Counted from the stretch's first letter, positions 11,047 through 62,567 are shown. The stretch is DNA of 64,000 nt from Halanaerobacter jeridensis (GCF_016908315.1 NZ_JAFBDQ010000005.1:1-64000); one strand, 5' to 3'. Translations and numbers: made by a program. The notes: generated from the letters alone by a model not told the origin.

Positions 11047-11069
11047 TATTTACCTCCCTTTTTCCCTTG

Positions 11070-11528: not shown

Positions 11529-11573
11529 AAATAAATTTCCTCCTTTAAAAAATATAATATAACAAAAGCAAAT

Positions 11574-12648: not shown

Positions 12649-12675
12649 TATAGATAAAAAGTTTTATAAGAAGTT

Positions 12676-14036: not shown

Positions 14037-14073
14037 ACAAAAAAATAAAAGCTATCAAAATAATTTTGATAGC
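14037..14073 (-). terminator. intrinsic terminator after the MCP remnant
   Basis: Stem GCTATCAAAA (14051-14060) with TTTTGATAGC (14064-14073). On the minus strand it is followed by a T-run (A-run at 14037-14050 on plus). Confidence 0.6.
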
Positions 14074-14154
14074 AAATTAAAGTTTATATTCTTTTTTATC
14101 TATAAACTAGGGCCAACAACAAATAAGTTACTCAATCAAAATTAATATTTATTA

Positions 14155-14820: not shown

Positions 14821-14991
14821 AATTAAAATCTAAGTAGTAGGGCCAAACATAGCTAATATAGTATCTGTAATTATATAATATTCAACTAATAATTAGTGGA
14901 ATTAAGGTAATTGAGTTTAAAAATAGATATTGTTTTGTTACTAAGGATACTTGATAAGTTTTTAATTTATTCCCTTTAACTACTAAAAATA

Positions 14992-15780: not shown

Positions 15781-15811
15781 TGATCACCTTTATTCAATTA
15801 ATTTTACTACC

Positions 15812-29732: not shown

Positions 29733-29925
29733 CAATGACCTACTTGAAGGGCAAGCCCGTTCAGGTTTCTTCATTCATTGAAACGAGCCTAATCTAAACC
29801 TACCGAAATGGTAAGACAAATCAGGTCTTACAGTTTCTAGACCAGCCAAAAGACTGGTTGAGGCAACTTACAATGCCTCCAGAAGCTTGAATTCCCGTCA
29901 GCCCGACGGTATGTATTATATTTTA
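29733..29925 (-). ncRNA. predicted TnpB omega/right-end RNA scaffold (orphan copy)
   Basis: Near-identity to the segment between the tnpB stop and the right end of the full IS. This is by analogy to the known origin of TnpB guide RNAs in the IS right end. Expression was not assessed. Confidence 0.45.
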
Positions 29926-39228: not shown

Positions 39229-40907
39229 TTGAAGAAAAAACACTTTTATTGTCCTTAGTCCTTTGTTTATTAGTATCTTTTTCTGTGACTGCAGCAGCAG
39301 ACGACTTACAGCTGAAAATTTTCCACACAAATGATACTCATGCCCGAGTGGAAGCAGGCAAATATGCTGGTATGGGATTTGCCAAAATTTCTAGTCTAGT
39401 CAAAGAAGCTCGCAATGAATCCGATAATGTTTTCGTTATTGATGCGGGAGATGCTTTTCACGGTCAAATCATTGCTAATCTAGTCGAAGGAAAAAGTATT
39501 GCTCAAATTTATAATGCTATTGGCTATGATGTGATGACACCTGGTAATCATGATTTCAACTATGGTGTTAAACGATTAAAAGAATTAAATGAAATGACTG
39601 ATTTTCCAGTTATCGCTGCTAATATTACTAACAAAGATGACACTCAAGACTATCCCTTCCCTCCAGGAGAAATTAAAACAATTGATGGAGTTAAAATTGC
39701 CTTTATTGGTTTAGCTACTCCAGAAACTGCTTATAAAACTCATCCAAAAAATGTACAAGGTATTACTTTCCAAGATCCAATTCAATCAGCTCAAAAGATG
39801 GTAGATAGACTACAAAAACAAGAAAATCCCGATATTATTATTGCTGTCAGCCATTTAGGTTTAAGTGAAGGTAGTAAATATACTAGTGCTGATGTAGCTA
39901 AAAAAGTAGATGCCATTGATTTAATTGTTGATGGTCACAGCCATCATGAATTAAAAGAAGGACGAGTCATCAATGATACCCCAATTGTTATGGCAGGAGA
40001 ACATACTAAGAACTTAGGTGTTGTTAACTTAACTATTGAGAATAAAAAATTAGTTAATAGCGAAGCCAATCTAATTACTAAAAAAGAAGCTGCAGATGTT
40101 AAGCCTGATCCAGAAATTACAAAGCTAGTCCAAGAAATCAAACAAGAACAGGACAAAATCACTTCTGAAGTGATTGGTAAAACTGCCGTAGAACTAAATG
40201 GAGCCCGGGCAAATATTCGGACTGGTGAAACTAACTTAGGTAATTTAGTTGCCGATGCAATGTTAAGTGCAGCTGATGCTGACGTGGCACTTACTAACAG
40301 TGGAGGTATTAGAGATTCTATTGCTCAAGGTGAAATAACTAAAGGTGATATCATCCGCGTCTTACCACTTGGTAACTATGTAGTTGTTAAGAAAATGAAA
40401 GGTAAAACTCTAATGGAAGCAGTTGAACACGGTTTAACACAATATCCAGCTCACGAAGGATTATTCCCACAAGTTGGCAATATGTCTATTATCTTTAACC
40501 GTTCTAAGCCAGCGGGAGATAGAGGGATGTTTCTTCACGTAAATGGAGAGTTTGTTAAACCTAATAAATACTACCGCGTAGCTACCAATGACTTTATGGC
40601 TGCTGGTGGGGATGGATATGATATGCTTAAAGACACAGAAACAGTGCAAGAAGCAGACGGTTTAGCAGAAATAGTAATTGATTATATTAAAGACAAAGGT
40701 ACTATAGCCCCTACTCAAAATGGAAGAATTCTATCTGTAGCTAAAGATAATAACCACTATATTTACAAAGTTGAAGCAGGAGATACATTATCAGAAATTT
40801 CTAACTGGTTTGGTGTTGAAATGTCTAAGATCATTAAATTAAATAATATTGAAAATCCAAATTTAGTTTATCCAGATACTAAAATAAAATTACCTCCAGC
40901 ACAATAA
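39229..40907 (+). CDS. secreted 5'-nucleotidase/metallophosphoesterase with a C-terminal LysM; apparent frameshift in A6 near the start
   Basis: NDTHAR, GDAFHG and GNHDFN motifs and a C-terminal LysM (YKVEAGDTLSEISNWFGVEMSKIIKLNNI). A TTG at 39229 is well spaced from GGAGGTG. It would give MKKKTLLLSLVLCLLVSFSVTAAAD only if the A6 run at 39235-39240 had one more A. The ORF-track start is the TTG at 39249. Confidence 0.75.
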
Positions 40908-40918: not shown

Positions 40919-40950
40919 GGGATAAGTCTTTACGGCTTATCCCTTTTTTT
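40919..40950 (+). terminator. intrinsic terminator after the 5'-nucleotidase gene
   Basis: Stem GGGATAAG (40919-40926) with CTTATCCC (40936-40943), followed by T7. Confidence 0.7.
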
Positions 40951-41950
40951 AACAAAGACGCGGTAATAATTGCTTTTGCAATGGCCTTAAAATTCTCGTC
41001 CCTCCTAAATTAGTTGTCAAGCAGACTCTTGATTTATCTCCTGTAACTTCTCCAATTACTGCAGTGCCTGTTCCTATAGGGCTATCTTTCATAGCATTAA
41101 CTACTGCTTCCGCTTCTTCTGCAGCAGCAACACATAACACCCGCCCTTCACTTGCTAAATAAAGTGGATCGATTCCTAAGATTCCTCCTAAGCCTTGGAC
41201 CTCTTTTTTTATCGGTAGTATTTCTTCTTCTAAATTAATCGTAACCTGCTTTTGCTGAGCTATTTCATGTAGTGCAGTAGCTAATCCACCTCGTGTTGGA
41301 TCAGTTAAAAATTTAATTCCACCACTAGAGCTTAAAATTTGAGCAGTTAAATTATTTAATAAAGCACAGTCACTCGTTAATGCACTACTCACTTCAAATT
41401 CTTCTCGGCTAGCTAAAATAGCTGCTCCATGATCACCTATAGAACCACTAATTATTATTTTATCCCCTGTTTCTATTTTAGCATCTTGTAAATTGATATC
41501 CGGGCCAACTACTCCTAATCCAGTAGTATTAATATAAATCCCTCCTCCTTTACCCTGCGGCACTACCTTAGTATCTCCTGCTGCTATCTTAACCCCTGCC
41601 TTCCGTGCAGTTTCAGCTACTGACTTAATAATACGTTTTAATTTATCTATCTCCAACCCTTCTTCCAAAATCAATCCCAAAGTTAAATATAACGGGTGCG
41701 CTCCATTCACAGCCAAATCATTAACAGTACCGCAGACAGCTAATTTACCAATATCCCCCCCAGGAAAAAAGATGGGATCAACGACAAAAGAATCTGTAGT
41801 AGTTACTAATTCCCCTTCTACTTCAGGCAAATAAGCAGCATCATCCTGCTGCAATAAGATATCATTACCGCAATAATAATAAATAATATCTTTAATTAAC
41901 TCCTGCATTAACTCCCCACCATTACCGTGGGCCAAAGTTATCGTTTTCAC
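40949..41950 (-). CDS. hypE: hydrogenase maturation protein HypE
   Basis: ITLAHGNGGELM near the N-terminus and a C-terminal ...LLPRLC. The likely start is the GTG at 41950, after AGGAAAGGAG; the ORF-track start at 41989 is probably too far upstream. Confidence 0.85.
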   Translation of the reverse strand: MKTITLAHGNGGELMQELIKDIIYYYCGNDILLQQDDAAYLPEVEGELVTTTDSFVVDPIFFPGGDIGKLAVCGTVNDLAVNGAHPLYLTLGLILEEGLEIDKLKRIIKSVAETARKAGVKIAAGDTKVVPQGKGGGIYINTTGLGVVGPDINLQDAKIETGDKIIISGSIGDHGAAILASREEFEVSSALTSDCALLNNLTAQILSSSGGIKFLTDPTRGGLATALHEIAQQKQVTINLEEEILPIKKEVQGLGGILGIDPLYLASEGRVLCVAAAEEAEAVVNAMKDSPIGTGTAVIGEVTGDKSRVCLTTNLGGTRILRPLQKQLLPRLC

Positions 41951-42008
41951 TTTGCTCACTCCTTTCCTAAATTCTATATAAATCTTCACTTTTTAGTGAA
42001 GATTTATA

Positions 42009-42150
42009 GTAATTAGTAACAAGTAAAGAGTGATGAGTAGAAAATCAAAAACAAAGTCAAAACCAAGTTCAAAAACTATAATCTTAGTGGTTGTGTCTTT
42101 TTTAAGATTTTGATTTTATGGTTTTGACTCATTACTGATTACTCTTTACT
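42009..42150. repeat. imperfect inverted copy pair of the AGTRA-word repeat family in the hypD-hypE spacer
   Basis: The left arm AGTAATTAGTAACAAGTAAAGAGTGATGAGTAGAAAATCAAAAACAAAGTCAAAACC and the right arm GATTTTGATTTTATGGTTTTGACTCATTACTGATTACTCTTTACT share their vocabulary (AGTGATGAGTA, GTAATCAGTAA, AAAGTCAA) with 25961-26400. Confidence 0.6.
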
Positions 42151-43263
42151 ATAAAGTTTCATTTTCACTGAAACTTTATATAGGTACGCCGCGCAACTCC
42201 CCTCCTGCGAGACCATACATGGGCCCAGAGGATGTGATGGAGTACATTTTGTCCCAAATAACTCACAATCAGTTGGCTTTTTTATTCCCATCAACACCTC
42301 TCCACAACTACACCCCGACTGTTTTGCTACTTTACCAGTTGCAGAAGCAAAATCAAATTTATTCTCAGCAGCAAATTCTTGATATTCCGGCCTTAATTCT
42401 AACCCTGAATTAGTTATCTTTCCCAAACCACGCCACCGACTTACAGTAGAGGTGAAAACTTGCTCCATAATCTTTAAAGCCTTTGGATTTCCTTTCTGTT
42501 CGACAACTCTAGGATAGGCATTGACTACTTTAGCTTCCTGTCTTACAATCATCTCCATAATTTGCTCTAAAGCAAAGAGAATATCACCTACTTCAAAACC
42601 AGCTACAACAGCAGGTAAATCATATTCTTTAGCCAAAAACTGAAAAGGTTCTACTCCAATGATACTAGCTACATGCCCCGGACACAAAAAGCCATCTATA
42701 TCTAAGTACTGATTTAAAACTAACTCTTCCATCACCGGCGGCATTGTTTTGAGAGCTTGTAACAAAGAATAGTTAGTCAGATTCTTTTTTTGCGCGTCTA
42801 AAATACTTAACGCAATCACAGGCGCAGTAGTTTCAAAACCAACAGCTAAAAATACAACTTCTTGTTCAGGATTATTTTCAGCAATCTTGACAGCATCTAG
42901 CGGTGAATATACTGTTTTAACATTTGGCCCCTGGGCTTGTTCTAATTCCAAAGTACTGTTACTACCCGGCACTTTTAAAAAATCAGCAAAAGTTGCTACC
43001 ATTACTCCTTCTTGCTGAGCCAAACTAATAGCAGTATCTATATAACTAAACGGCGTTACACAAATTGGGCAGCCTGGACCTGTCAATAATTCTACATTAG
43101 ACGGCAGTAGTTCCCGCAGCCCAATCTTCGAGATAGCCTGCGTATGAGTACCGCAAACTTCCATTATTTTAATCTTTCCTTTAACTACTGTGAATTCTTG
43201 CTGCAATTTTTCTAAGAGTTTACTGTTTATCTTTGCAGCCCTAAATTGTTCTAAGTAATTCAT
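42139..43263 (-). CDS. hypD: hydrogenase maturation protein HypD
   Basis: 374 aa with the CGTHT-type motif (EVCGTHTQAI), GPGCPICVTP and FLCPGHVASIIG. Confidence 0.85.
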   Translation of the reverse strand: MNYLEQFRAAKINSKLLEKLQQEFTVVKGKIKIMEVCGTHTQAISKIGLRELLPSNVELLTGPGCPICVTPFSYIDTAISLAQQEGVMVATFADFLKVPGSNSTLELEQAQGPNVKTVYSPLDAVKIAENNPEQEVVFLAVGFETTAPVIALSILDAQKKNLTNYSLLQALKTMPPVMEELVLNQYLDIDGFLCPGHVASIIGVEPFQFLAKEYDLPAVVAGFEVGDILFALEQIMEMIVRQEAKVVNAYPRVVEQKGNPKALKIMEQVFTSTVSRWRGLGKITNSGLELRPEYQEFAAENKFDFASATGKVAKQSGCSCGEVLMGIKKPTDCELFGTKCTPSHPLGPCMVSQEGSCAAYLYKVSVKMKLYSKE

Positions 43264-43493
43264 CTTTCTTCCCCCGCATCTTGGGCCAAATCTCTAAAAG
43301 CAGCTAAAGTTTCCTGGGCTGCAGATTGATTTAACTTTTGAATCGCACATCCCGAATGAAGCAGCACATAGTCTCCTACCTCTACTTCCGAAATCAAAGT
43401 AATATTGACTGTCTTTCTAACTCCTTTTACTGCTCCTACAGCCTCTGTATCATTAACAATTTCTATAACTTTAACCGGCACAGCAATACACAT
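43260..43493 (-). CDS. hypC: hydrogenase maturation protein HypC
   Basis: 77 aa beginning MCIAVPVKV. It overlaps hypD by 4 nt. Confidence 0.85.
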   Translation of the reverse strand: MCIAVPVKVIEIVNDTEAVGAVKGVRKTVNITLISEVEVGDYVLLHSGCAIQKLNQSAAQETLAAFRDLAQDAGEER

Positions 43494-44813
43494 TACAAAT
43501 GACCCCTCTCTTGATAATTAGCTACTGCTAATTGTCCTACTGCTAAGCCCTCATCAGTACAAGGAATCTTATGAGGTAGATGAACTTTAAATCCCCCAGC
43601 TGTTAACTTGCGATAAACCTCAATCAATAAGATCTGATTCTGCCATACCCCTCCACTTAATACTACATGATCTAATTTGAATTGTAGTCGCAATATCTCA
43701 CATAACCTAACACTAAAATTAATCACTGTATTATGAAATTTACGAGCAATCATACCTGCATCTACTCCCGCTCTTAAATCAGCAGCAATTTCTTTTATCA
43801 AAGTGGTAATCAAAATCTGATACTGACCTGCTCTCTTGCTGATTTGATAATTATAACTATCATTATTATTAACAGTTTGAGCTGCAGTTTCTAACTTAAG
43901 AGCAGCCTGCCCTTGATAACTCCTTTTTAAACACAATCCTAATAGAGCTGCTACTGCCGCAAATAATCGTCCAAGACTAGAAGTAAGAGGACAATTAATA
44001 TCTTGTTCTAACATTTGCTCTACTGCAGCTAATTTATCAGGCTTTATTTGAGACATATTTTGAGTAAAGATTTCAGTTACTTCTATTCCCGCCTGGTGGA
44101 GATAACTAACTGCCATCCGCCATGGTTCCTTAACTGCTTGATCTCCGCCGGGTTGAGCTACATACTGCAAATGACCTACACGCATAAAATCACTATAATC
44201 ACAAATAAAAAACTCCCCCCCACAAGTGACCATCAGTTCCTAAACCTACTCCATCAAAAGCAATTCCAATCACCGGTTGTTGGAGTTGATGTTCAACCAT
44301 AGAACTGACTAAATGGGCATGATGATGCTGCACTGCTATCTTCTCACCTGGTAATTGCTGAGCATAATGAGTAGAATAATAACCCTCATGTAAATCATGA
44401 ACAATTAACTCCGGTTCTATATCATACAACTGCTCTAAATGTTCAATATTATCTTGATAACGTTGGTAAGTCTCTAAGTTACTTAGACTGCCTGTGTACT
44501 GACTTACAAAAGCAAATTCTCCTTTGCTGAGACAGAATGTATTCTTTAAATCTCCTCCACAGGCCAAAGTAGCTACCTCTGAGCTTACTTTAATCACTTG
44601 TGGTGCAAAACCACGGCCGTGTCTAATTACTCGTTCATGACCAAGGGCTACATTGGTTACTGCATCATCTACCGGCACCTCTATCTTGCGATTATGTAAT
44701 AAACAGTAGTCAGCTACTGCAGTTAATTCTTCTCCTGCTCTTTGATTAGTATATTCTAACGGTAGTCCACTTAAATTTCCACTTGTCGCTACTAATACAT
44801 CAAGTCCATGGGC
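43493..44813 (-). pseudogene. hypF: hypF, C-terminal (Kae1-like) part, itself frameshifted
   Basis: ..AHGLDVLVATSGNLSGLPLEYTNQRAGEELTAVADYCLLHNRKIEVPVDDAVT.. then ..GLGTDGHLWGG, with a frame change in the C7 run at 44215-44221 (G7 on minus), then EFFICDYSDFMRVGHLQYVAQPGGDQAVKEPWRMAVSYL... The first codons of the ORF-track ORF 44199-44855 derive from the IS right end. Confidence 0.8.
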
Positions 44814-45047
44814 CAATGACCTACCTGAAGGGCAAGCCCGTTCAGGTTTCTTCATTCATTGAAACGAGCCTAATCTGAACCTACCGTAAATGGCAAGACA
44901 AATCAGGTCTTACAGTTTCTAGACCAGCCAAAAGACTGGTTGAGGCAACTTACAACGCCTCCAGAAGCTTGATTTCCCGTCAGCCCGACGGTAAATATGT
45001 TTTTTATGAGCTTCACGAAAAGTCCGTTAGGACTTGTAGGATGTGGA
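44814..45047 (-). ncRNA. predicted TnpB omega/right-end RNA region
   Basis: A structured, comparatively GC-rich 234 bp lies between the tnpB stop and the IS right terminus, and is conserved in the orphan copy. By analogy to characterised TnpB systems the guide would be read from the flank beginning at 44813. The boundaries are not determined. Confidence 0.45.
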
Positions 45048-46181
45048 CTAACCTGCTAACAGTTTCTTTCCTTCTTGGAGGATATTCAAACTTGCGTTAA
45101 GGTCACGATCATGTTCAGCACCACATTCACAGGTCCAGTTTCTTACAGATAGATCTTTAACATTTGGATTTTTAGTTCCACATTCGTTGCAAGTTTGAGA
45201 ACTTGCGAAAAATCTATCTACCTTTTGAATGATACAATTATACCAGTCACCTTTATATTCTAGCATATCTGTAAATTTGCCCCAAGATACATCTGTTATA
45301 TGTTTGCCAAGTTTGCTGTTTTTGACCATACCTTCAATGTTTAAGTTTTCAAGACAGATAAATTGATTTTCTTTAACTAGTCTTGTACTTAATTTATGGA
45401 GGAAATCAGTTCGTACATTTTTGATCTTTTCATGTACTTTAGCAATCTTATGTTTGAGCTTTTGCCAGTTATTAGAACCTTCTTTTTTACGAGCTAATTG
45501 TTTTTGTAATCTGGCTAGTTTATTTTCATATTTAGAAAGATGTTTAGGATTTTCTATCTTTTCGCCCTCTGATGTAATAGCAAAATCTTTGAGACCTAGA
45601 TCAATTCCTATCTGACCATCATTGGAATAATTAACTTCTACAACTTTAATTTTTTCAACATTGATAGAGATATAATACTTTCCTGTTCTTGATTTAGAGA
45701 CTGTAACATTATTTAATTTACCTCCAATATTTTCTTCACTATAATTAGAAAATTTGATCCAAGAAACTTTAGGAAGTTTGATTTTATTTCCTTTGATTTC
45801 TATACTTTCAGTTCCGCTAGATCGTTTAAAATATTCGGTACGATATGATAGTCGAGAACCTTTCTTGCTTTTGAAATTAGGGAATCCTTTATCACCGTTA
45901 AAGAAATCTTGGAAAGCTTTATCTAGATCTCTAATTGATTGCTGCAAAGCTATAGAATCAGCATTTTTAAGCCATGAAGTTTCTTCCTGATTTTTAAGTT
46001 TAGGAAGATCTTTAATATATTGAGTTTTATTTGCATAGCCATTTTGTTTAGCTTTGTCTAAAAAATAATTATATACCCATCGGCTAGACCCTATAGTTTG
46101 GTTGATTATATCTTTTTGCTTTTGATTTGGATATATCCGACATTTATATCCCCGTTCGATAGGAACAAATCGCTTAATCAT
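45048..46181 (-). CDS. tnpB: TnpB (RuvC-like RNA-guided nuclease family, 377 aa)
   Basis: RuvC motifs IGIDLGLKDFA, ICLENLNIEGM and DRDLNASLNI, and the zinc ribbon CNECGTKN...CECGAEHDRD. Confidence 0.9.
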   Translation of the reverse strand: MIKRFVPIERGYKCRIYPNQKQKDIINQTIGSSRWVYNYFLDKAKQNGYANKTQYIKDLPKLKNQEETSWLKNADSIALQQSIRDLDKAFQDFFNGDKGFPNFKSKKGSRLSYRTEYFKRSSGTESIEIKGNKIKLPKVSWIKFSNYSEENIGGKLNNVTVSKSRTGKYYISINVEKIKVVEVNYSNDGQIGIDLGLKDFAITSEGEKIENPKHLSKYENKLARLQKQLARKKEGSNNWQKLKHKIAKVHEKIKNVRTDFLHKLSTRLVKENQFICLENLNIEGMVKNSKLGKHITDVSWGKFTDMLEYKGDWYNCIIQKVDRFFASSQTCNECGTKNPNVKDLSVRNWTCECGAEHDRDLNASLNILQEGKKLLAG

Positions 46182-46197
46182 AATTTGACCTCATTCC

Positions 46198-46602
46198 CTA
46201 TTTAAGGTTTTGATTTTTTATATAATTTCTAATAGTTTCAATATTAGCATTACCTACTGTATCTACAAAATATCCTTTGCTCCACAAAGAACCACAACGA
46301 TCATAAAAAATCTTTAATTTAGGATGTTCCTTGAAAAGTTTAATTGCTGATATGCTTTTAATAGTTCTTACTATATCAGTAGGAGCAACTGTGGGTCTAG
46401 CAGATACAAAAATATGAATGTGATCTGGCATTACTTCTAACTCTAATATTTTATAGTTATATCTGTTACAAATATTAATGATAATATCTTTTAAAGATAA
46501 AGCTATATCGCCATTTAAAACTTCAAATCTGAATTTAGGACACCAAACTAAATGATATTTGATGGAATATTTACAATGGTTAGTAGAATTATATTCATTC
46601 AT
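46198..46602 (-). CDS. tnpA: IS200-type Y1 (HUH) transposase TnpA (134 aa)
   Basis: HUH motif PDHIHIFVS and a C-terminal catalytic-Tyr region (ETIRNYIKNQ). Confidence 0.9.
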   Translation of the reverse strand: MNEYNSTNHCKYSIKYHLVWCPKFRFEVLNGDIALSLKDIIINICNRYNYKILELEVMPDHIHIFVSARPTVAPTDIVRTIKSISAIKLFKEHPKLKIFYDRCGSLWSKGYFVDTVGNANIETIRNYIKNQNLK

Positions 46603-46756
46603 TTAAATCATACTTTTCTTTGATACTTCTACGCATTAAATCTAAATAGCTTAGTGTAGTCTCTTCTTCAACTGAATAAATACTAGCTAAATTTTCTAAT
46701 TCCCGATCAAAAGGAATTGCAATATTAATTTTAGTATTATCTTTACTTGAAGACAT
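46595..46756 (-). CDS. small ORF inside the IS left end, possible ribbon-helix-helix protein (53 aa)
   Basis: MSSSKDNTKINIAIPFDRELENLASIYSVEEETTLSYLDLMRRSIKEKYDLNE. It overlaps the tnpA start by 8 nt. A beta-strand-like INIAIPFD is followed by helical segments. It is below the ORF-track size cut-off. Confidence 0.35.
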   Translation of the reverse strand: MSSSKDNTKINIAIPFDRELENLASIYSVEEETTLSYLDLMRRSIKEKYDLNE

Positions 46757-46854
46757 TTTATTTGCTCCTTTAACACATATTATCCCACAATAGATTATAT
46801 ATTATGTGAATAGTTGTGTTCTTGACCCAAGGGCAAGCCCGTTGGGTTTTTTAC

Positions 46855-47434
46855 ACAAAAACAATAACTGTGGCCCACAATCAGGGCAGGCATTTGGCTG
46901 AGCATGAAAGCGCCTGCTAGTCGGATCTTGATATTCACTAAGGCAATCTTCACACATACTAAAATCAGACATAGTAGTTGACTCCCTGTCATATGGTATA
47001 CTCTCAATAATTGAAAAGCGTGGGCCGCAGTTCGTGCAATTAATAAACGGATATCTATATCTTCTATCATCTCCATCTAATAATTCCTCTTGGCATTGTG
47101 AACATAAAGCTGCATCTGGAGTCACAAAGGTTAACTGTTCATTATCATCTGTACTATCTTTGATTTTAAAATGTTGATAATTCGTAGATTGCAGCTGGTT
47201 GATTATTATCTCTTCTATTTGGGCCAAGGTTGGCGGATTAGATTTAATTTGATTAATCAAATTAGTTACTCCCCGCAGCGAGCCCTGCACATCAATTTCT
47301 ACCCCCTGCTGAGTATTATTAACTTCTCCTTGTACATCATAATGCTGAGCTAAATTATAAACAAAGGGTCTAAAGCCAACTCCTTGTACTATGCCCTTTA
47401 CTATCACAAACTTACGAATTACTTGCTCATTCAT
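46855..47434 (-). pseudogene. hypF: hypF, N-terminal part (acylphosphatase plus zinc fingers)
   Basis: VIVKGIVQGVGFRPFVYNLA (acylphosphatase-like), then CSQC...CTNCGPRFSII...CEDC...CPDCGPQLLF, where the IS begins. The tail of ORF 46802-47434 is IS-derived. Confidence 0.8.
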
Positions 47435-48080
47435 TTTGCTTAATCCTTTCTTTTAAATAACTGCAAAATTCTTTTAATCCCTGCTGATTACTACAAGAAA
47501 CAGGAAACACTCTTAACTCCGGCTGCAGAGATCTCAAATCAGATTCAACTTCGGAAAGAGAAAAATTGCTCTGCTCTAATAAATCCAACTTGTTGATGAC
47601 TACTGCATCAGATTGCTGGAATAAAGCAGGATACTTAAGCGGTTTATCATTACCTTCTGGAACGCTAAGTACAGTAATTGTCATTGCCGTACCTAGAGCA
47701 AATGAAGCAGGGCAGACTAAGTTACCTACGTTTTCAATAATTAAACAATCTAACTGCTATAAATCCAATTTTTTTAATACCTGTTGAATTGATAATGCTT
47801 CTAAATGACACGCCCCCTGCGTATTAATTTGAATTACTTGACTACCATAACCCTCTAGTCGCTCGGCATCTCTTCTCGTATATAAATCCCCTTCAATTAC
47901 TGCTAGATTAATCTCTTGACCTAATTCACTTAATAAATATTCTAATAAAGTCGTCTTACCACAGCCAGGAGAACCAACTATATCAAAAGCAAAAACATCT
48001 GCTTGCTCTAAAATGCTTTTATTTTCTTGTGCCCTTTGCTCATTTTTAGCTAATAAATTTTTCTCTACTTCTACTTTCAT
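47427..48080 (-). pseudogene. hypB: hypB with a single in-frame TAG
   Basis: GSPGCGKTTLLEY P-loop upstream; ..QQVLKKLDL-TAG-QLDCLIIENVGNLVCPASFALG.. downstream. The TAG at 47757-47759 is in frame with both ORF-track fragments (47757-48080 and 47427-47684). Confidence 0.8.
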
Positions 48081-48424
48081 GCTGATTCCCCCTCAATGGT
48101 ACTTAAATATAATTCATCCCCCGATAACAATTGTTGACAAAAACTATTACAATTAGGGCAATATTTATTTCGCTTCTTCACTTTAAACTGAGTCCCACAA
48201 TTTTTACACTTAGCTTGAGCCGTGACCCACTCTATCTTCAATTCAGCCTCCTCCATTCCAGTACTAGCAGCAAAAGCAGAAAAGGCAAATCTTAATGCAC
48301 TTTCTTCTATACAAGTTAGTTGGCCTATTTTTAATTCTACACTATTAATTTTTTCTAACTGCTGCTCAACTTTAGTCGCAGTTATAATTTCAAATACCCG
48401 AGCCATAATTGACATTTCATGCAT
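48077..48424 (-). CDS. hypA: hydrogenase nickel-insertion protein HypA
   Basis: MHEMSIM start and the zinc motif CKNCG...CPNC. It overlaps hypB by 4 nt. Confidence 0.85.
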   Translation of the reverse strand: MHEMSIMARVFEIITATKVEQQLEKINSVELKIGQLTCIEESALRFAFSAFAASTGMEEAELKIEWVTAQAKCKNCGTQFKVKKRNKYCPNCNSFCQQLLSGDELYLSTIEGESA

Positions 48425-48502
48425 CTTAATCACCCTTTATTTCCTATTAACATTTCAAACAATAATTTTTTCTATTCTCCATTATTAATTTTCAATTATC
48501 AA

Positions 48503-49894
48503 TCAAAACGTAACCTTTTCTTCTATCTCTCCTTCAACATTAAGCACATGAGTAGCACAGGAAATACAAGGATCAAAAGAGCGAATAATCCGTCCTAAAA
48601 TCGTAGTTAATAAATTAGCATTAGGAATTTTAGTTCCGACTAAAGCATTTTCTACTGGTTCCCGCCGGCCCAATTTATCTTTAGGAGAAAAATTCCAAAC
48701 GGTAGGCGTTATAATTTGATAACTTGATACTTCTTCTCCTTCAATTTCTGCCTGATGCAATAGCGCTCCCCGCATCGCATCAGTAGTAGCTGTGACCTTA
48801 GTCTTAACTGGCTTTTCACTTTGACTAATTGGAGGTGGACCAGGTTCTAATTGAGCCAACCATTTCTCCATTAATTCTGCAATCTGCAGTGTTTCTCGTG
48901 AGCGGGCTACAATACGATCCATAGTTGAAGTCTTTAACGGATAGTCACCTCTGATAATTGCCCGCGCTAAAGGACCAGTTTCAAAAAAATCTCCGTCATA
49001 CTACACAGATTTAGTCCAACTATAAGCTCCTGGTTTATCTGGAGCCGGCTCTAACTGACCATCTTCTTCTTCAAACCAAGAATTAGCTACTGTTTCTTCA
49101 ATTTTATCCACATCAGGCTGGGCAAACTGCCGCCCGTTAATTACTCCCCTAGGCCAAAAATCATCTTGATTCTGTTCACCAAACTTAAATAAGCCACAAG
49201 AAATTAACCGCTTAGGAGTAACCCCAATCTTAAAATAATCATTATAAACTTGGGCCAACAATTCTGTATCTGGAATCAGTTTTTCTCTAATAAATTGCAA
49301 AATATTAGCTAATAATGCTTGAGCTCGATTAATCTTATCAGCAGTAGGAGCTACTGCTACACCACCTTGCACAAAACTATGTTGATGCGGTGCTTTCCCG
49401 CCAAATAAAGCTAATATCTCATGCGCTTCCTGCGCAACCTTGACAGCATCAAAGTAATGACCTACTAAGCGCTGATTATCTTTAGGCTTCAAACGCCCAT
49501 CAACAAGATTTTGATTTTGCCACGGAGGCCGATTAGGAAACTCAACAAAATCAGGCAAGCTAAAAAAATAAAAATGGCGGATATGATTTTGTAAGAAATC
49601 AGCAACCAGCATAATATTTCTTAAATACTGAGCCCGCTGAGATAAAGTACTACCATATAACTCATCTAATAAATAACTACCCACTGCTCCATGGGCCAAA
49701 GAACAAATCCCACATACCCGCTGCGTCAGATATACAGCATCAGTTACTTTCCGGCCCTGCATAATTTTTTCATAACCTCTAAACATCGTACCTTTAGCAT
49801 TAGCCTCTTTGATCCAACCATCATCTATAACTACCTTGACTGATAGTAATCCACTTAATCGCGTAACAGGACTAAAATTAATCGTCTGACTCAT
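48503..49894 (-). pseudogene. [NiFe]-hydrogenase large subunit with a single in-frame TAG
   Basis: N-terminal RVCGICSLAHG and C-terminal DPCISCATH. The two ORF-track fragments are joined in frame by ..YSWTKSV-TAG-YDGDFFETGPLARAIIRG.. (TAG at 49001-49003). Total length is 464 codons. Confidence 0.8.
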
Positions 49895-49978
49895 ATTCTC
49901 TAACCCCCTTCTTTAATATAATAAAGATTGAGTTTAAGTCTAAGAATTAGGCTTTATCTTCTCTTTTGTCTTGACTGT

Positions 49979-50899
49979 TTATTCATTACTGTTTTCAGAT
50001 AGCGGAGTAAAAAATGGCGTCGAACCATCGGGAAAATCGGGATTAGTACAGCCGATACAAGGAGTATTAGCTTCGACTGGCCAATTAACATTAATCCACT
50101 TCCGATAAGGGCAATCTGCTCTAGTTTTAGGCCCTACACATCCTTGACTGAACATACATTCAATCTCACCTAAATTTTCAGCAAAGTTACCATTATCAAA
50201 ATAAGAGCGACGCTGACAATGGCGGTGAATAGTATAACCATAAAATAAAGTTGGTCGATTGCGGTTATCAAGTTCTGGCCGTCCATACATTAATAAATGC
50301 GCTAAAGTTCCAACAAACCAATCAGCATTCACCGGGCAACCACTGACATTAATAACTTCCCGGTCTAATACCTCACTGACTGCTACACTTTGACTGAGAT
50401 TAGGTCGAGCTGCACTAGGGCCACCGAAACTAGCACAAGTTCCTAGTGCTACTACATATTTAGCCAAGCCACCTAACCACTTTACTGCTTCTAAAGCACT
50501 AACTTCTCCTTGGGAAGTAATGAAGACAACATTGTACTCTTCTTGTAAAGGAATTGCTCCTTCTACTACTAAAGTAAATTGACCGGCTTTTTTATTAGCA
50601 GCAGCTTTGAGATTATTAACCGCATCTTGGCCCTGGGCAGCCATAAAAGTATTACTGTATAACAAATCAATTGTTTCCTCCAAAAATCGGTCTAAATAGG
50701 GATATGTTGTATTCATGATTGAAATATTATTATCACAACTACAATTTGTTTCTAACCAAATTACAGGTAATTTTTCAGTTTGAGAATCATGATAACTACT
50801 TACTTCTGCTAAGATTTTATGAGTTAAAGAACTATGCCCTTTATTACCTTGGTAAGGAGAATAATTCTGACAAAGATTGATAAACTCATTTCGCTTCAC
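49979..50899 (-). CDS. [NiFe]-hydrogenase small subunit (306 aa, no obvious Tat signal)
   Basis: Cysteine pattern for the proximal, medial and distal FeS clusters (..NCSCDNNIS.., GTCASFGG, ..CPYRKW..CIGCTNPDFPD). It lies directly upstream of the large subunit. Confidence 0.8.
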   Translation of the reverse strand: MKRNEFINLCQNYSPYQGNKGHSSLTHKILAEVSSYHDSQTEKLPVIWLETNCSCDNNISIMNTTYPYLDRFLEETIDLLYSNTFMAAQGQDAVNNLKAAANKKAGQFTLVVEGAIPLQEEYNVVFITSQGEVSALEAVKWLGGLAKYVVALGTCASFGGPSAARPNLSQSVAVSEVLDREVINVSGCPVNADWFVGTLAHLLMYGRPELDNRNRPTLFYGYTIHRHCQRRSYFDNGNFAENLGEIECMFSQGCVGPKTRADCPYRKWINVNWPVEANTPCIGCTNPDFPDGSTPFFTPLSENSNE

Positions 50900-51270
50900 A
50901 AATATACCTCCCCTTTTTATGTCTCTAATAATATTATGTTTTCAAATTATCTATTATTAAAATTATTTATACTCTATTTTAGTAACGAAAGAACATTTAT
51001 CTAATATGCTGTATTAAAAAGCTTATGGGGGGAGTCTAACTTGAAAAGTATAAAAACAATATTCAAAAATATGAAGACAAATATAATACATATAGCAATT
51101 CTACAATTAACTCTGACTGCTTAATCAATTGTTTATCACTATTAATTGATTATAGTCTTAAAAAACGAAAATTTTCCAAGCAAAAATAAAAGAGACAAAA
51201 AATATTAACTTTATTTATTAATTGACGCTAGCAATGTATAATTAATTCAACTTATTAATAAATATTAACT

Positions 51271-51747
51271 ATGGAAAAAATCAATTATAAAGTTACAATT
51301 ATAGGACTTGGTAATATCTTAATGTCAGATGATGGTTTAGGAGCAACTGTAATTAAACAATTAAAGCAAGAAACCTGGAGTAGAGAAATTTTAATTGTAG
51401 ACTGCGGTACTTGTCCCCTAGTTTATCTTGAACAATTGAGTACATCGCAGCACGTAATTGTAATTGATGCTATTAAAAAAGGTAAACCGGCTGGGACCAT
51501 TTATCACTTTAATTTAGCAAAACACAGATCAAAAAATAGACTTAAAAGAACCACTCATAATTATTCTTTACCTCAAGTTATTGCCTTAGCTCGCGAAATT
51601 AACAATTTACCTCACACAGTAATCTATTATGGCATTGAACCTGCTAATCTAAATTTAGGAACAGAACTTTCTCATCCACTAAGACAGTCTATCCCCAAAT
51701 TAATTAGACTGATTAAAAAACAAATCAATCAGTTAAGCAAAAAATAA
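51271..51747 (+). CDS. hydrogenase maturation endopeptidase (HyaD/HybD family, 158 aa)
   Basis: VTIIGLGNILMSDDGLG N-terminal motif and DAI..G..G pattern. It is divergent from the hydrogenase operon. Confidence 0.8.
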   Translation: MEKINYKVTIIGLGNILMSDDGLGATVIKQLKQETWSREILIVDCGTCPLVYLEQLSTSQHVIVIDAIKKGKPAGTIYHFNLAKHRSKNRLKRTTHNYSLPQVIALAREINNLPHTVIYYGIEPANLNLGTELSHPLRQSIPKLIRLIKKQINQLSKK

Positions 51748-51807
51748 TCCAGGAGCAGCTCAAGGCTACTCCTGGATTATGCTAGTTATTATGAACTTTT
51801 AAAATTA

Positions 51808-51848
51808 CAAAAAATTAAAAAAGCTCTGGGGAAATTCCCCAGAGCTTT
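51808..51848 (-). terminator. intrinsic terminator after the cold-shock gene
   Basis: Stem AAAGCTCTGGGG (51820-51831) with CCCCAGAGCTTT (51837-51848), with a T-rich tail on the minus strand. A second hairpin, TAATCCAGGAG/CTCCTGGATTA at 51745-51779, follows the plus-strand peptidase gene. Confidence 0.65.
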
Positions 51849-51881
51849 GTAAGGTCGCAATTTATGTTAGTTAGAGCTTAT

Positions 51882-52085
51882 TTACAGCTTAACAACATCT
51901 TCAGCTTGCAATCCACGATCGCCTTCTACTACTTCAAATTCTACCTCTTGATCTTCTTCTAAAGTTTTGTAACCTTCTTCTTCAATTGCAGAAAAGTGAA
52001 CGAATACGTCATCTCCTGCTTCTCTTTCGATAAATCCATAACCTTTTTTCCCGTCAAACCATTTTACATTACCTTGTTCTTTCAT
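51882..52085 (-). CDS. cold-shock protein (CspA family, 67 aa)
   Basis: [34 protein letters not shown] contains the RNP1/RNP2-like motifs. The ORF-track start at 52139 is probably upstream of the real ATG at 52085. Confidence 0.9.
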
Positions 52086-52228
52086 TATAAAATTCCTCCT
52101 AAGTTTTTTAAAACAGTTGATAAGAAGTTTTTTTATCAACCTAAATAAATAATAGCACAGGATTAGCTATTTGTCAAAGGATTTATTCATTAATTATAAA
52201 TTATTACAACTGCTATAATAATAATTAC

Positions 52229-53416
52229 TTAATTTTCACCATCAGCCAACCATCTCTCTCCTGTTAACTTAATACCTAATGCTCCTAGAGGTGAAGTTAC
52301 TACAATCGATAAGACTGCTAATGCTAAAATTAATTCCCCCGACTCAACTCCTGCAGCTAACGGTACTGCCCCTACAGCAGCCTGTACTGTTGCTTTAGGT
52401 AGATAAGCGATCACACAAAATAATCTCTCTTTCCACTCTAAATTAGTATTAATTAATGAAATTAAAACCCCAATCGATCTAGCTAAAAGACCAACCGCAA
52501 TAATTACTAGCCCGACTAAGCCTGATTGTAAAGCCACCTCAATATTAACCTCAGCACCAATTAACACAAATAATAATAATTCAGCAAACACCCAGATTTT
52601 ATTAAACTTAGCCGCTAACCTCTGCCCTACTTCCTTATATTTTTCCATAATTACAAAACCAATTGTCATTACTCCCAATAAACTAGCAATTGATATAATT
52701 CCTTCGAGCGCTTCTTTAGATACATCCAGAAATATAGCCACACTTAAAATCAACAATACCTTTTTAGTATCACGCATATGATACTTTTTAAACAAATAAA
52801 TCAAGAATAAAGCTACCACAACTCCAATTGCTACTCCTAGGATAATTGAAATCGGAATATTTAAAAGTTTCCAAGTTAAATTAACACTCTGTCCCCCATA
52901 AAATCCTAGAAAAGTAGAAAATAGAGTAATTGCGACTATATCATCGATTGATGCTCCCGCTAAAACTAAAGTTGGAATCCCCTTAGCTGCTCCTTTACCC
53001 CGATCAATCAAATTTAACATTTGAGGAACTATTACAGCAGGAGATACAGCAGCAATAATAAAAGCTAAAATTCCTGCTTCAATTAACGAGATATCTAATA
53101 AATAATTAGCCACAAACAAAATCGTAAAACCTTCCATTAGCCCCGGAATAAAACTCATCTTAACTGCAGGAACTCCTATTTTCTTTAGCGTTTCTTTCTT
53201 TAAGCCTAGTCCGGCTCGAATTAAAATAATAATCAAGGCTATTTTTCTTAAATCCGGCGAAACCTGCAGTAATTCTTGACTCATTACATCAAAACCATAC
53301 GGACCAATTGCTACTCCCAAAATCAACATTCCTAATAACCCTGGTAAACTAACATGGTCAAAAGCCTTATTAAGTATTAGACCAAACAAAATTATAATTG
53401 CTAAACTTAACGCCAT
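52229..53416 (-). CDS. cation:proton antiporter (Na+/H+ exchanger family, 395 aa)
   Basis: A polytopic membrane protein (about 10-12 predicted helices by eye) with the glycine-rich and charged loop patterns typical of CPA-type antiporters. Confidence 0.7.
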   Translation of the reverse strand: MALSLAIIILFGLILNKAFDHVSLPGLLGMLILGVAIGPYGFDVMSQELLQVSPDLRKIALIIILIRAGLGLKKETLKKIGVPAVKMSFIPGLMEGFTILFVANYLLDISLIEAGILAFIIAAVSPAVIVPQMLNLIDRGKGAAKGIPTLVLAGASIDDIVAITLFSTFLGFYGGQSVNLTWKLLNIPISIILGVAIGVVVALFLIYLFKKYHMRDTKKVLLILSVAIFLDVSKEALEGIISIASLLGVMTIGFVIMEKYKEVGQRLAAKFNKIWVFAELLLFVLIGAEVNIEVALQSGLVGLVIIAVGLLARSIGVLISLINTNLEWKERLFCVIAYLPKATVQAAVGAVPLAAGVESGELILALAVLSIVVTSPLGALGIKLTGERWLADGEN

Positions 53417-53662
53417 TTTTTATCCCACTCCCTTTTCTATATAAGTAAGACAGTTAAAGTTAAAAGAATCTTTGCTAAAGATATTTTCTTTTAAAAGAGA
53501 ATATCTCTATAAGACCATTCCTGCCCCACACTATTAAAGTAAGATTACCTTAGATGTAGATGAAATTTTTTCGCAGCGACTTTAAATCTAGTTTGCAATA
53601 AGTCTTAACGCAGAATAATAAAAAATCATTTTATCTACATCTGGAAAGCTACACTTTATATA

Positions 53663-53714
53663 AAAAAGACCCCTACTCGCTGAGAAGATAAAGTAATCCC
53701 CAAGCAAGTAGGAG
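53663..53714 (-). terminator. intrinsic terminator after LysM paralogue 1
   Basis: On the minus strand, CCTACTTGCTTGGGGATTACTTTATCTTCTCAGCGAGTAGGGG is followed by TCTTTTTT. Confidence 0.6.
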
Positions 53715-53835
53715 CCATCAATTGCTATATTTAGCAATAGTTAAAGGCGAGCTCCATCGCCTACCATTTAATTTTAGCAGATTAATTATAAGATTGCAAT
53801 CAAAATTTGTAGACTAATTATTTTACTGCCTTTTT

Positions 53836-54990
53836 TCACCTTTTACATTTCCCCAACATACCATCTAACAAAGGATTAGTTCGTACCCCAGTATCTCTAG
53901 AATACGGCATGACAGATATTCTAGTTCCCGGCACAGCAAATGGATCTTCAGGAATAACTTTTGTTCCACTCCAGGTTGATTGCTCCCCAGAAAAAGTTGA
54001 TTCTTCTAAAATAATAGAATAACTCCGCCCTTCGCCAGTACCAATGCCAATTCCCACTCCAGCTACATAAGAATCAAACTGCCCATCAAATATTGATTCT
54101 GGAGCCGGCAAACCAGTAGCACCAACAGTCAGAGCATAGCTGTTTTCTGCTAATTTCTGCACTAAAACAACACCACCTCGTCGAGCAGGCACAGGTCTCA
54201 AATATTCAGGTGCAGTCAGTATCACAACACATTTTTCCGGTACGATTGCTTCTGTAGGTATACATATCTTTTCTCCCACAGAAATTTGGTTAGGATTTTC
54301 TATTTGAGGATTAGCAGCAATTAAATTATCTACCGTAATTCCATATCTTTGGGCTATTTCATATAAAGTATCTCCTGCTTGGACAGTATAAGTTTTCCCT
54401 ACACAATCAGTTGTTTGATCGGCTGAATACTGATTTTCTACTAACACAAAAGAGCCCGGCACAAAAGCAACTGAATCATAAGGCACAATTCCTACTATTT
54501 TTGTATTAGACAAATTTATTCCACCTAAAGCCAAACTCCAGGTTGGTTCTTGATTTCCCACAGCAGTCTGCTTTAATTCAGAGTAAAAAGTTCCTCCGCG
54601 TTCTCGACTAAAAAATCTAGTCATGACTGCATAGGAATCAAAATCAAGCTGAGATTCTAGCAATTCTGGTTCCGGCAGCCCAGCAGCAAAAACAGTCACA
54701 TCATAACTATCTTCTGTTAGCTGCTGTAGTAAAATCACTCCTCCAGCTCGGTTTGAAACTGAAGGATATTCAGTATTTTGAGGTCGAGTTAGTACTGTTG
54801 ACCATTTTTCACTTCCCTCAATTTCTTCAATTGGAATACAGATTACCTGACCAACAAAAATAAAATTAGGATTTTCTATCTGCGGGTTAGCAGCCAGTAA
54901 ATCATCTACTGCAACTTCATATTTCTGAGCTATCTTGTTTAAAGTATCGCCCGGCTGCACAGTATATCTAGTCCCTGGACAATCATTCAT
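53836..54990 (-). CDS. double [LysM + ~130-150-aa unknown domain] protein, paralogue 1
   Basis: The LysM repeats are YTVQPGDTLNKIAQKYEVAVDDLLAANPQIENPNFIFVGQVICIP and YTVQAGDTLYEIAQRYGITVDNLIAANPQIENPNQISVGEKICIP. The likely start is the ATG at 54990 (MNDCPG) after AGCAGGA; the ORF-track start is 55044. Confidence 0.75.
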   Translation of the reverse strand: MNDCPGTRYTVQPGDTLNKIAQKYEVAVDDLLAANPQIENPNFIFVGQVICIPIEEIEGSEKWSTVLTRPQNTEYPSVSNRAGGVILLQQLTEDSYDVTVFAAGLPEPELLESQLDFDSYAVMTRFFSRERGGTFYSELKQTAVGNQEPTWSLALGGINLSNTKIVGIVPYDSVAFVPGSFVLVENQYSADQTTDCVGKTYTVQAGDTLYEIAQRYGITVDNLIAANPQIENPNQISVGEKICIPTEAIVPEKCVVILTAPEYLRPVPARRGGVVLVQKLAENSYALTVGATGLPAPESIFDGQFDSYVAGVGIGIGTGEGRSYSIILEESTFSGEQSTWSGTKVIPEDPFAVPGTRISVMPYSRDTGVRTNPLLDGMLGKCKR

Positions 54991-55179
54991 ATAATTCCTG
55001 CTTATAATATAAAATCCTATGCATAATGCATAGACCACAATCATACAAGATTAGATTGTGTTAGCTATAATCCTATGCACAGTTTTTCTTATAAGCAGGA
55101 TTTTCACCACCTTTCTTTTTGTTTGAATTAAAATTTTTACTAAAAGTCAATTTATCTAACCTTTAATCAGGTCATAATC

Positions 55180-56367
55180 CTAAAATTCCTCCGCTATCTT
55201 GCCAGATAATAAAATTTCTGCTCCTGATATCTCATCCGGTTGATAATATGGTCTAATATTGACCTCCGCTCCCTGCACACTATATGGCAATTCCGGAGGT
55301 AAAATTACTGTTCCTGCCCAGATTGAACCCTGGACTGGAGTAACAACTCGTTCTAAAACAGCATAATAAGAAAGCTGCTGTTCAAACCCAAGTTGAATAT
55401 TGATCGTAGCTAAATAGCTATCATACTCTAACTCATCACCTATAACCTCAGGCACAGGCGGTATCCCCACTGCACCAAATGTTACAACATATCCTCTGTC
55501 AGGTGTATATTGAGCTAAAACTACTCCCCCAGTCCAAGGTGGAACAGGCTTAAAATAATCTGAAGCAGTCATTACTGCCGTATATTTTCTCGGTATAGAA
55601 GCTTCCGGCGGCAGCACAATCGTTTGACCTACAAAAATTTGGCTTGGATCTCCTATATCAGGATTTACAGCTAGTAATTGGTCCAAAGTCAAATTATATT
55701 TTTCTGCTACTTTACTTAAAGTATCTCCGGCTTGAATTCGATAAGTTGTTCCATATTCAGAATAATCTTCCTCAATTAAAATATTTCCTTCTGATGTTCG
55801 ACCAGTGGTCTGATGTAAAGCAAAAACCCTGATCAAATATTCCTCCGGATCTATCGTACCTAAAGTTCCTGACCAAACTGGTTGCAGAGAACCACCAGCT
55901 GTTCGGGTAGTTTTTTTCAAAACTTTAGTATATCTATAGTTTCCAATTTCCGGAGGAGAATCATATTCATTCATCCTAGTTACTAAAGTCACATAAGAAT
56001 CAAAATTTCCTAACTCTTCTAAACTAGGCAGCCCTGTAGCAAATATGACTGCCTCATAAGCATCATCATCTATCTGCTGTAACAACATTGTTCCGCCTAA
56101 ATCATAGGGGATAGGAAGATTATTTTCTTCAAGAGTAGGCAACATTGGCGGCAGCAGTAATACCGCTTCTTTTATAAACTCATCACCCCCATTGGCAGTA
56201 GGAATACAGAGTTTCTGCCCTACATCAATCTGACTAGAACCTCCCAACTGTGGATTAGCTGCATACAAACTTTCTAGGGTAATTCCATATCTTTGAGCAA
56301 TTTTATATAATGTATCTCCTGCTCTCACAAGTATAACTTCTCCTTTACACTTTCTGCCGTCACTCAT
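55180..56367 (-). CDS. double [LysM + unknown domain] protein, paralogue 2
   Basis: Same architecture as paralogue 1 and the shared motifs GG.(L/V)L.Q, A.G(L/I)P, (F/Y)DSY and W(S/A)GT. The likely start is the ATG at 56367, after AGAGGTGA. Confidence 0.75.
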   Translation of the reverse strand: MSDGRKCKGEVILVRAGDTLYKIAQRYGITLESLYAANPQLGGSSQIDVGQKLCIPTANGGDEFIKEAVLLLPPMLPTLEENNLPIPYDLGGTMLLQQIDDDAYEAVIFATGLPSLEELGNFDSYVTLVTRMNEYDSPPEIGNYRYTKVLKKTTRTAGGSLQPVWSGTLGTIDPEEYLIRVFALHQTTGRTSEGNILIEEDYSEYGTTYRIQAGDTLSKVAEKYNLTLDQLLAVNPDIGDPSQIFVGQTIVLPPEASIPRKYTAVMTASDYFKPVPPWTGGVVLAQYTPDRGYVVTFGAVGIPPVPEVIGDELEYDSYLATINIQLGFEQQLSYYAVLERVVTPVQGSIWAGTVILPPELPYSVQGAEVNIRPYYQPDEISGAEILLSGKIAEEF

Positions 56368-56552
56368 TTCAATCACCTCTAACTAGTAGTTTATATTATT
56401 ATATGCCTGATAAAATATTTTGGTTATTGCATTGATAGGCAGAAACTGCTAATAGGCTCCCCACTGAGCTGAATAACAACAGTTTAGAAACAATTTGATA
56501 TTATTTCTAAACTGTGATGAAAGTAAAAACTACTTATTTATCATTTTTAAAT

Positions 56553-62485: not shown

Positions 62486-62567
62486 TAATCCCTCCTTAGT
62501 AATTAGTAATTAAACATTATTAAGGAAATATATCTTTTTATTATTTTCTCTATCTGACAGAAATACT

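Follow-up and report, generated by a model that had tools for sequence, protein, structure and literature searches.

Halanaerobacter jeridensis, a halophilic fermenter of the Halanaerobiales, has very probably lost the function of an uptake-type [NiFe]-hydrogenase operon very recently, through four or more independent mutations; the operon lies in a 64,000-nt stretch of the genome (GCF_016908315.1, NZ_JAFBDQ010000005.1:1-64000; hereafter the window). The operon, hydSL-hypABFCDE, is encoded on the minus strand and accompanied by a divergent maturation endopeptidase gene. A preliminary description, made from the sequence alone, had proposed this gene order and a recent multi-lesion loss of function. 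Open reading frame (ORF) coordinates and profile matches gave the same order, and the loss of function was supported by four relatives that are intact and carry sense codons, and by the fact that hypF has been hit twice. The lesions are an in-frame TAG in the large-subunit gene, a second in-frame TAG in hypB, an insertion sequence (IS) coupled with a 381-bp deletion in hypF, and a 2-bp frameshift further downstream in hypF. All four lesions are real. Overall, the finding is an ordinary multi-hit pseudogenisation of one operon that includes a canonical IS200/IS605 insertion and leaves current understanding unchanged; its sole mildly unusual aspect is that the 381-bp deletion is edged by target-like heptamers of the IS itself.

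Comparison with orthologous loci, proposed as a check in the preliminary description, was carried out with four relatives (L047, L048, L050 and L051), in all of which the locus is intact. The reconstructed large subunit, used as the query of a protein search, led to L047, an 8.9-kb metagenome contig (ENA ERZ10759774) with 97.3-97.9% nucleotide identity to the window over the alignable parts, the large subunit of which (P0001, 463 amino acids (aa)) is 98% identical. On L047, the genes for the endopeptidase, small subunit (306 aa), large subunit (463 aa), HypA (115 aa), HypB (217 aa), HypF (758 aa), HypC (77 aa) and HypD are uninterrupted. The more distant syntenic relatives L048, L050 and L051 have large subunits that are 76-81% identical, and every gene is intact in them; L050 also has the flanking helicase, Na+/H+ exchanger and cold-shock (CSD) genes. 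Relatives returned by a GTDB genome scan all showed at most 69% identity, and H. jeridensis was not among them. Because the locus is intact and syntenic in its relatives, it is ancestral and vertically inherited and not a recent import. L047 is probably conspecific with the window strain and, if so (~97.5% nucleotide identity), the loss is a strain-level event. The disabled ORFs of the window, with intact orthologues at the syntenic position in L047, are unitary pseudogenes.

The large-subunit gene is interrupted at codon 298, where the translation reads ..WTKSV*YDGDFFETGPLAR.. (the asterisk denotes the stop), and hypB is interrupted at codon 108, where it reads ..KKLDL*QLDCLIIENVGNL..; both stops are present as previously described. 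Codon 298 is CAG in four of four relatives (L047, L048, L050 and L051), and the TAG of the window represents a single C-to-T transition. Both metal motifs, RVCGICSLAHG and DPCISCATH, are kept in the conceptual translation, and PF00374 matches both fragments, but no single frame joins the two motifs in the window because the TAG breaks it; in P0001 of L047, one frame contains both. The 297-aa protein P0013, 'Ni,Fe-hydrogenase I large subunit [Halanaerobacter jeridensis]', is 100% identical to the part preceding the TAG, and annotators should read this entry as a pseudogene fragment. Codon 108 of hypB is GAA in L047, GAG in L051 and AAA in L050; as judged from these codons, the hypB TAG is one G-to-T change away from GAG.

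In hypF, an IS200/IS605-family element interrupts the sequence CAG TTA TTG / IS / GCC CAT GGA (slashes denote boundaries here and below). Alignment with L047 showed a perfect GTTATTG/GCCCATGG at L047 positions 6180-6186, exactly where the right flank of the window restarts, and a GTTATGG at 5799-5805, where the left flank stops. L047 positions 5804-6184 (381 nt = 127 codons, HypF residues 191-317) have no counterpart in the window. The Pfam profile for YrdC (Sua5/YciO/YrdC) is matched at positions 2-178 in the HypF of L047 and at 110-178 in the window, leaving positions 1-109 missing, and the 381-bp loss removes the N-terminal 60% of the YrdC-like carbamoyl-phosphate-processing domain. The insertion and the loss within the YrdC-like region, here 127 codons, had both been recognized in the preliminary description, whereas its statement that excision of the IS would leave the frame unrestored did not hold: with 381 divisible by three and the IS placed between codons, excision would restore the frame. 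The predicted join is ..QLL/AHGLDV.. (i.e., ..GPQLL/AHGLDVLVATSGN..), and its product would still lack the 127 codons.

The second lesion in hypF is the loss of one AG from an AGAG repeat, ..GGGGGGGAGAGTTT.. becoming ..GGGGGGGAGTTT.. in the alignment to L047 (TGGGGGGGAGAGTTTTTT in L047 versus TGGGGGGGAGTTTTTT in the window), which converts the canonical ..HLWGGEFF.. to ..HLWGGVFYL*. A frameshift in the C-terminal part of hypF had been noted before, but its attribution to a run of seven G residues (G7), with a possible sequencing artefact as the cause, has to be revised: the AG deletion lies beside a G7 run that is equally long in both sequences. Because the intact L047 also has G7, the frameshift is not a homopolymer-length miscall, and the alignment rules out a homopolymer sequencing error as its cause. 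A sequencing artefact is an improbable source of a 2-bp AG loss that lies beyond the homopolymer.

The broader possibility that some or all of the lesions are sequencing or assembly artefacts, absent from the living strain, was weighed against a second assembly. Logan contigs of run SRR18704483 are 100% identical to window positions 42114-44844, 44941-46400 and 46822-55119, which means that a second assembler reproduces both TAGs and the frameshift; exact-protein look-ups matched the genes of the window only in the Logan contigs of this run. At the IS, the contigs extend 30 nt into the right end and ~39 nt into the left end before breaking off. Logan contigs are built on a 31-mer graph, in which a multi-copy repeat at such a place leaves a 30-nt overhang. 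An artefact would fit with the position of the frameshift next to the G7 run and with a sequence that is known from one sequencing run only. However, the two assemblers agree exactly, both stops are base substitutions, the G7 run is equally long in an intact relative with a 2-bp AG loss as the difference, and the IS junctions fit the canonical target and the right-end boundary of independent copies. We therefore consider an artefact very unlikely.

Two further explanations would accept the TAGs as real and still allow a functional enzyme. Amber read-through, i.e., decoding of both TAGs by pyrrolysine or a suppressor tRNA, possibly conditionally, would yield a full-length large subunit and HypB. 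It is compatible with the facts that both in-frame stops are TAG, with no mix of stop codons, that both lie at variable positions (Gln/Lys/Leu or Glu/Lys in relatives), and that the Halobacteroidaceae include a pyrrolysine-decoding species: Acetohalobium arabaticum decodes UAG as pyrrolysine conditionally. The likeness to A. arabaticum consists of the family and the UAG identity of the in-frame stops; in contrast to that system, the TAGs of the window are unconserved, the genes are unrelated to methylamine metabolism and the operon is otherwise destroyed. Because the closest relatives encode CAG and GAR at the two sites, the TAGs are of new origin and do not mark conserved recoding sites, and none of the 43 orthologous loci examined carries TAG at either position. 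TAG also ends 17 of the 73 long stop-to-stop frames in the window, including those of tnpA, tnpB, dprA, a pfkB kinase and a LysM protein, and the two operon TAGs are the only coding-strand stops in the whole 64 kb that are flanked on either side by 70 or more open codons. With TAG ending these 17 frames and no other gene having an internal stop, a change of the genetic code or a recoding of TAG is ruled out. The 64-kb window contains no tRNA genes, suppressor or pyrrolysine tRNAs included, and literature searches linking Halanaerobacter with pyrrolysine found nothing. Halanaerobacter makes trimethylamine and does not consume it, hence there is no obvious need for pyrrolysine-containing methyltransferases, which also argues against read-through. 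Moreover, because hypF has the 127-codon deletion, the IS and the frameshift, read-through would yield no mature enzyme. With sense codons in the relatives and hypF beyond repair, we regard read-through as extremely unlikely, in line with the lower rank that the preliminary description had given it.

The large subunit could also function in split form, with the 297-aa N-terminal part and a C-terminal fragment assembling as two polypeptides as in VhuA/VhuU of Methanococcus. Split large subunits occur naturally, the C-terminal region gives a weak match to the NCBIfam VhuU model, and an ATG at 48922 begins a 139-aa ORF. However, a restart at this ATG would drop residues 299-324 including the conserved GPLAR segment, the gene is unsplit in all relatives, and the maturation of a split subunit would be unavailable as HypF and HypB are broken too. 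The loss of GPLAR, the unsplit relatives and the broken HypF and HypB rule this candidate out for practical purposes, and we see next to no chance that it applies.

The remaining genes of the locus are intact, as previously described for the small subunit, hypA, hypC, hypD, hypE and the endopeptidase (Table 1). Intactness was judged by length relative to L047 or the outgroups and by full-profile scores above the NCBIfam equivalog or subfamily cut-offs, and no lesions were found in the genes called intact. HypD and HypE have the same lengths as in the outgroups, and the small subunit differs from that of L047 by 2 aa before its variable C-terminal tail. Relative to L047, hypD differs in its final 10 codons and the small-subunit gene in its final 5; these codons lie outside the conserved cores and are variable in the outgroups. 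The HypA-F pathway is consequently incomplete, with HypA, HypC, HypD and HypE intact and HypB and HypF broken.

Table 1. Features of the hydrogenase locus of H. jeridensis (window coordinates; scores are given against the model cut-off where one applies).
Feature	Position	Strand	Evidence and remarks
[NiFe]-hydrogenase operon	40949-50899	-	order: small subunit, large subunit, hypA, hypB, hypF, hypC, hypD, hypE
Maturation endopeptidase, intact, 158 aa	51271-51747	+	divergent; TIGR00072, 124.8 bits vs 47.45; length as in L047
Small subunit, intact, 306 aa	49979-50899	-	GTG start; TIGR00391 hydA, 220 bits vs 179.5; length as in L047
Large-subunit pseudogene, 463 codons	48503-49894	-	translation; intact 463-aa orthologue P0001/L047, 98% identical
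Nonsense TAG, large-subunit codon 298	49001-49003	-	ancestral CAG (Gln)
hypA, intact, 115 aa	48077-48424	-	TIGR00100, 101 bits vs 88.1; length as in L047
hypB pseudogene, 217 codons	47427-48080	-	translation; intact L047 HypB scores 257 bits on TIGR00073
Nonsense TAG, hypB codon 108	47757-47759	-	ancestral Glu (GAR)
hypF 5' fragment, codons 1-191	46862-47434	-	acylphosphatase domain and two HypF zinc fingers; PF00708, PF07503; L047 alignment; ends ..CPDCGPQLL
IS200/IS605-family element, 2048 nt	44814-46861	-	tnpA and tnpB profile matches, hairpins, both ends mapped
IS left-end hairpin	about 46826-46846
IS conserved small ORF, 53 aa	46595-46756	-
tnpA	46198-46602	-	NF033573, 156 bits vs 55; HIH and RNYIKNQ motifs
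tnpB	45048-46181	-	NF038281, 462 bits vs 425, full length
IS right end / presumed omega-RNA region	44814 to about 45047		right-end hairpin about 44824-44845
hypF middle fragment	44215-44813	-	YrdC-like tail and first Kae1-like subdomain; PF01300 positions 110-178 only, PF17788; resumes at ..AHGLDVLVATSGNLSG
2-bp (AG) deletion site	44212-44215 (about 44213-44214)	-	immediately 3' of G7 run 44215-44221
hypF 3' fragment, second Kae1-like subdomain	43493-44211	-	PF22521, E = 4e-73; out of frame with middle fragment
hypC, intact, 77 aa	43260-43493	-	starts MCIAVP; PF01455; length as in L047
hypD, intact, 374 aa	42139-43263	-	TIGR00075, 431 bits vs 192.8
hypE, intact, 346 aa	40949-41989	-	ends PRLC; TIGR02124, 426 bits vs 251.6, profile 2-332 of 332

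The decay of the operon appears to be at a very early stage. Nei-Gojobori dN/dS ratios between the window and L047, which are based on few counts per gene, were 0.05 for the small subunit, 0.06 for the N-terminal part of HypF, 0.15 for HypB, 0.18 for HypD, 0.26 for HypA, 0.34 for the large subunit and 0.41-0.45 for the two distal parts of HypF; the flanking exchanger and CSD genes gave 0.08-0.13. Most of the 2.5% divergence has evidently built up under purifying selection. Amino-acid differences between the window and L047 were polarised with L048, L050 and L051. Outside the large subunit, 14 replacements were window-derived versus 18 that were L047-derived and, because the changes of the two lineages are balanced there, decay has barely begun. 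For the large subunit, 7 changes were window-derived (E20K, A153V, Q298*, Q321K, E348Q, E386G and G412E) versus 1 that was L047-derived. G412E affects a position that is Gly in 114 of 119 homologues, and among the columns with 95% conservation or more, the large subunit of the window deviates at a single one, which equals the family median.

This pattern resembles multi-hit pseudogenised operons after relaxed selection, which likewise show independent disabling mutations within one functional unit, intact orthologues in close relatives and undamaged neighbouring genes. There is no unusual difference from such unitary pseudogenes; decay is simply very early here, with the remaining ORFs and motifs whole and no general excess of replacements. 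Once one essential step had been lost, selection on the remaining genes would have relaxed and further hits would have accumulated. The large subunit may have been the first to fail: its excess of replacements is a weak signal, hinting that it lost constraint first, if any gene did. As the enzyme would no longer be made, H2 uptake through it would be lost. With an intact allele in the environment and four independent hits in the cultured strain, the locus offers a clean, datable case of within-species operon decay.

Several points weigh against the reading of a recent, multi-hit inactivation of this operon. Both assemblies probably share one read set. The excess of 7 versus 1 changes in the large subunit is marginal (two-sided binomial p ~0.07). 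At the hypF deletion, we infer the left GTTATTG repeat, L047 having GTTATGG there. Outside the 64-kb window, the genome may carry a further hydrogenase, an additional hyp cluster, pyl genes or a suppressor tRNA. Finally, the lesions may have arisen either before isolation, in nature, or later, in laboratory culture.

The enzyme is of the Group 1 type, with the [NiFeSe]/Hys clade as the nearest known system. The likeness comprises a large subunit of family PF00374 with RxCGxC and DPCxxCxxH motifs, a small subunit with PF01058 and PF14720, a C-terminal extension with a dedicated endopeptidase and a full hyp set; as a difference, the large subunit, hypB and hypF are pseudogenes in this strain. 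The enzyme does not belong to the [NiFeSe] hydrogenases proper. The NiFeSe equivalog models NF033181, NF045518 and NF045520 scored below their cut-offs (420 vs 600, 384 vs 780 and 222 vs 470 bits). [NiFeSe] enzymes have selenocysteine at the C-terminal motif site, whereas this site is Cys here (DPCISC), with no TGA. The small subunit also lacks the arginine pair of the twin-arginine (Tat; RRxFxK) signal that marks periplasmic group 1 hydrogenases: it starts with MKRNEFINLC.. in the window and L047, and the corresponding sequences are QRKEF in L048 and HKDEF in L050. Because the intact relatives lack the two arginines too, their absence is a clade trait and not a lesion. The N-terminus resembles the remnant of a Tat motif that has no twin arginines, and the missing arginines hint at a cytoplasmic location of this group-1-like clade.

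The related species H. salinarius and H. chitinovorans use H2 as an electron donor for the conversion of glycine betaine to trimethylamine (PMC5023251). An uptake hydrogenase would be the obvious entry point for the H2 of glycine-betaine reduction. The predicted phenotype of this strain, which is probably the type strain, is the absence of H2 uptake via this [NiFe]-hydrogenase, and the predicted loss matters wherever the genome or physiology of the strain serves as a reference for the species.

The element in hypF has the hallmarks of the IS200/IS605 family, namely a Y1 HUH TnpA, a TnpB gene, subterminal hairpins and a fixed target 5' of the left end. Its right end, ...CTTCAGGTAGGTCATTG/, was set by a solo copy at 29733-29911, the homology of which ends at exactly that base. 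The left end was set by 97%-identical metagenome copies (L052-L054), which begin (AT)AGTTATTG/CTTTTGTGTGAAAAACCC; the 5' flank is conserved in these copies, which identifies GTTATTG as the target site, and YTTTTGTGT directly 3' of it is the beginning of the element proper. The subterminal hairpins are imperfect, with a bulged C (CCCAA-C-GGGCTTGCCC-TTGGG and CCTGAA-C-GGGCTTGCCC-TTCAGG). No terminal inverted repeats and no target-site duplication were found at the element, the flanks being GTTATTG and GCCC, and an Rfam scan returned no omega-RNA or other family at gathering score in the element or the locus. IS608-type members share the co-oriented tnpA and tnpB, the imperfect subterminal hairpins with a bulged base at both ends, the absence of terminal inverted repeats and of target duplication, and insertion 3' of a fixed short target; the right end here also finishes similarly to the target (TCATTG vs TTATTG). 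The target of IS608 is TTAC and that of ISDra2 is TTGAT. In contrast to IS608-type members, the element in hypF has GTTATTG as its target, a conserved 53-55-aa ORF that overlaps the start of tnpA, and an insertion coupled with a 381-bp flanking deletion. The element is thereby defined with both ends and its target, and it is probably active.

An IS608-like element inserted 3' of its preferred target, 5'-GTTATTG, in hypF, and the 381 bp between two GTTAT(T/G)G repeats were lost, presumably by one of three routes: recombination between IS copies at both target-like sites, TnpA cleavage at both of these sites, or slippage between the 7-nt repeats. Because the loss is bounded by target-like heptamers and one edge coincides with the IS end, a TnpA-mediated deletion suggests itself. 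Nevertheless, it is doubtful that TnpA, a single-strand transposase, catalysed the deletion by cutting the two target-like sites, ordinary recombination or slippage being the alternative. If TnpA did so, this would be an IS200/IS605-mediated flanking deletion of a rarely documented form.

Two observations concern other parts of the element. The small 53-aa ORF lies between the left end and tnpA, the start of which it overlaps (ATGAATGA). The 97%-identical metagenome copies L052-L055 conserve this ORF as a gene of 55 aa, and Pfam gave no match to it. The solo copy of the right end is 180 bp long and 96.7% identical, and consists of the hairpin and the region 3' of tnpB (presumed omega-RNA scaffold) without tnpA or tnpB. 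It is intergenic, between an M14 carboxypeptidase gene and an uncharacterised ORF, and may represent a remnant of the IS in hypF or else a miniature version of it.

Two intergenic regions of the locus also differ from L047. The spacer between the small- and large-subunit genes (about 49895-49996) has 84 nt in the window and 252 nt in L047, whereas L048 and L050 have no such spacer. The 167 nt by which L047 is longer (L047 2504-2670) consist of octamer repeats of the ACAGTGA(A/G) type and a hairpin (AGACTTGGCAGTGCCAAGTCT), and through the indel the final five codons of the small-subunit gene are changed as well. In the divergent promoter region between hycI and the small-subunit gene, L047 lacks a 98-nt segment (51026-51123) that occurs just once in the window and may be either a neutral indel or a fifth lesion affecting regulation.

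Elsewhere in the window, positions 1-16000 have a G+C content of 25-31% versus ~37% at the hydrogenase locus and include a tyrosine integrase gene at 12761-13801; this region is possibly an integrated mobile element. For a P-type cation ATPase (start region 62440-62520; stop-to-stop frame 59780-62509, minus strand), the N-terminal Pfam domain starts 17 codons past the upstream stop, and the frame has no ATG, GTG or TTG until codon 78 but a strong AAGGAGG followed by ATT ATA. This gene may either start at a rare ATT/ATA codon or have lost its start codon. Three tandem paralogues of ~400 aa each, with two LysM domains per protein, are located at 53836-57755, and a fourth LysM gene, encoding a LysM-tailed 5'-nucleotidase, at 39249-40907. 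The Na+/H+-exchanger-family gene at 52229-53416 has a fluoride riboswitch upstream (53702-53770, minus strand; RF01734, 48.7 bits).

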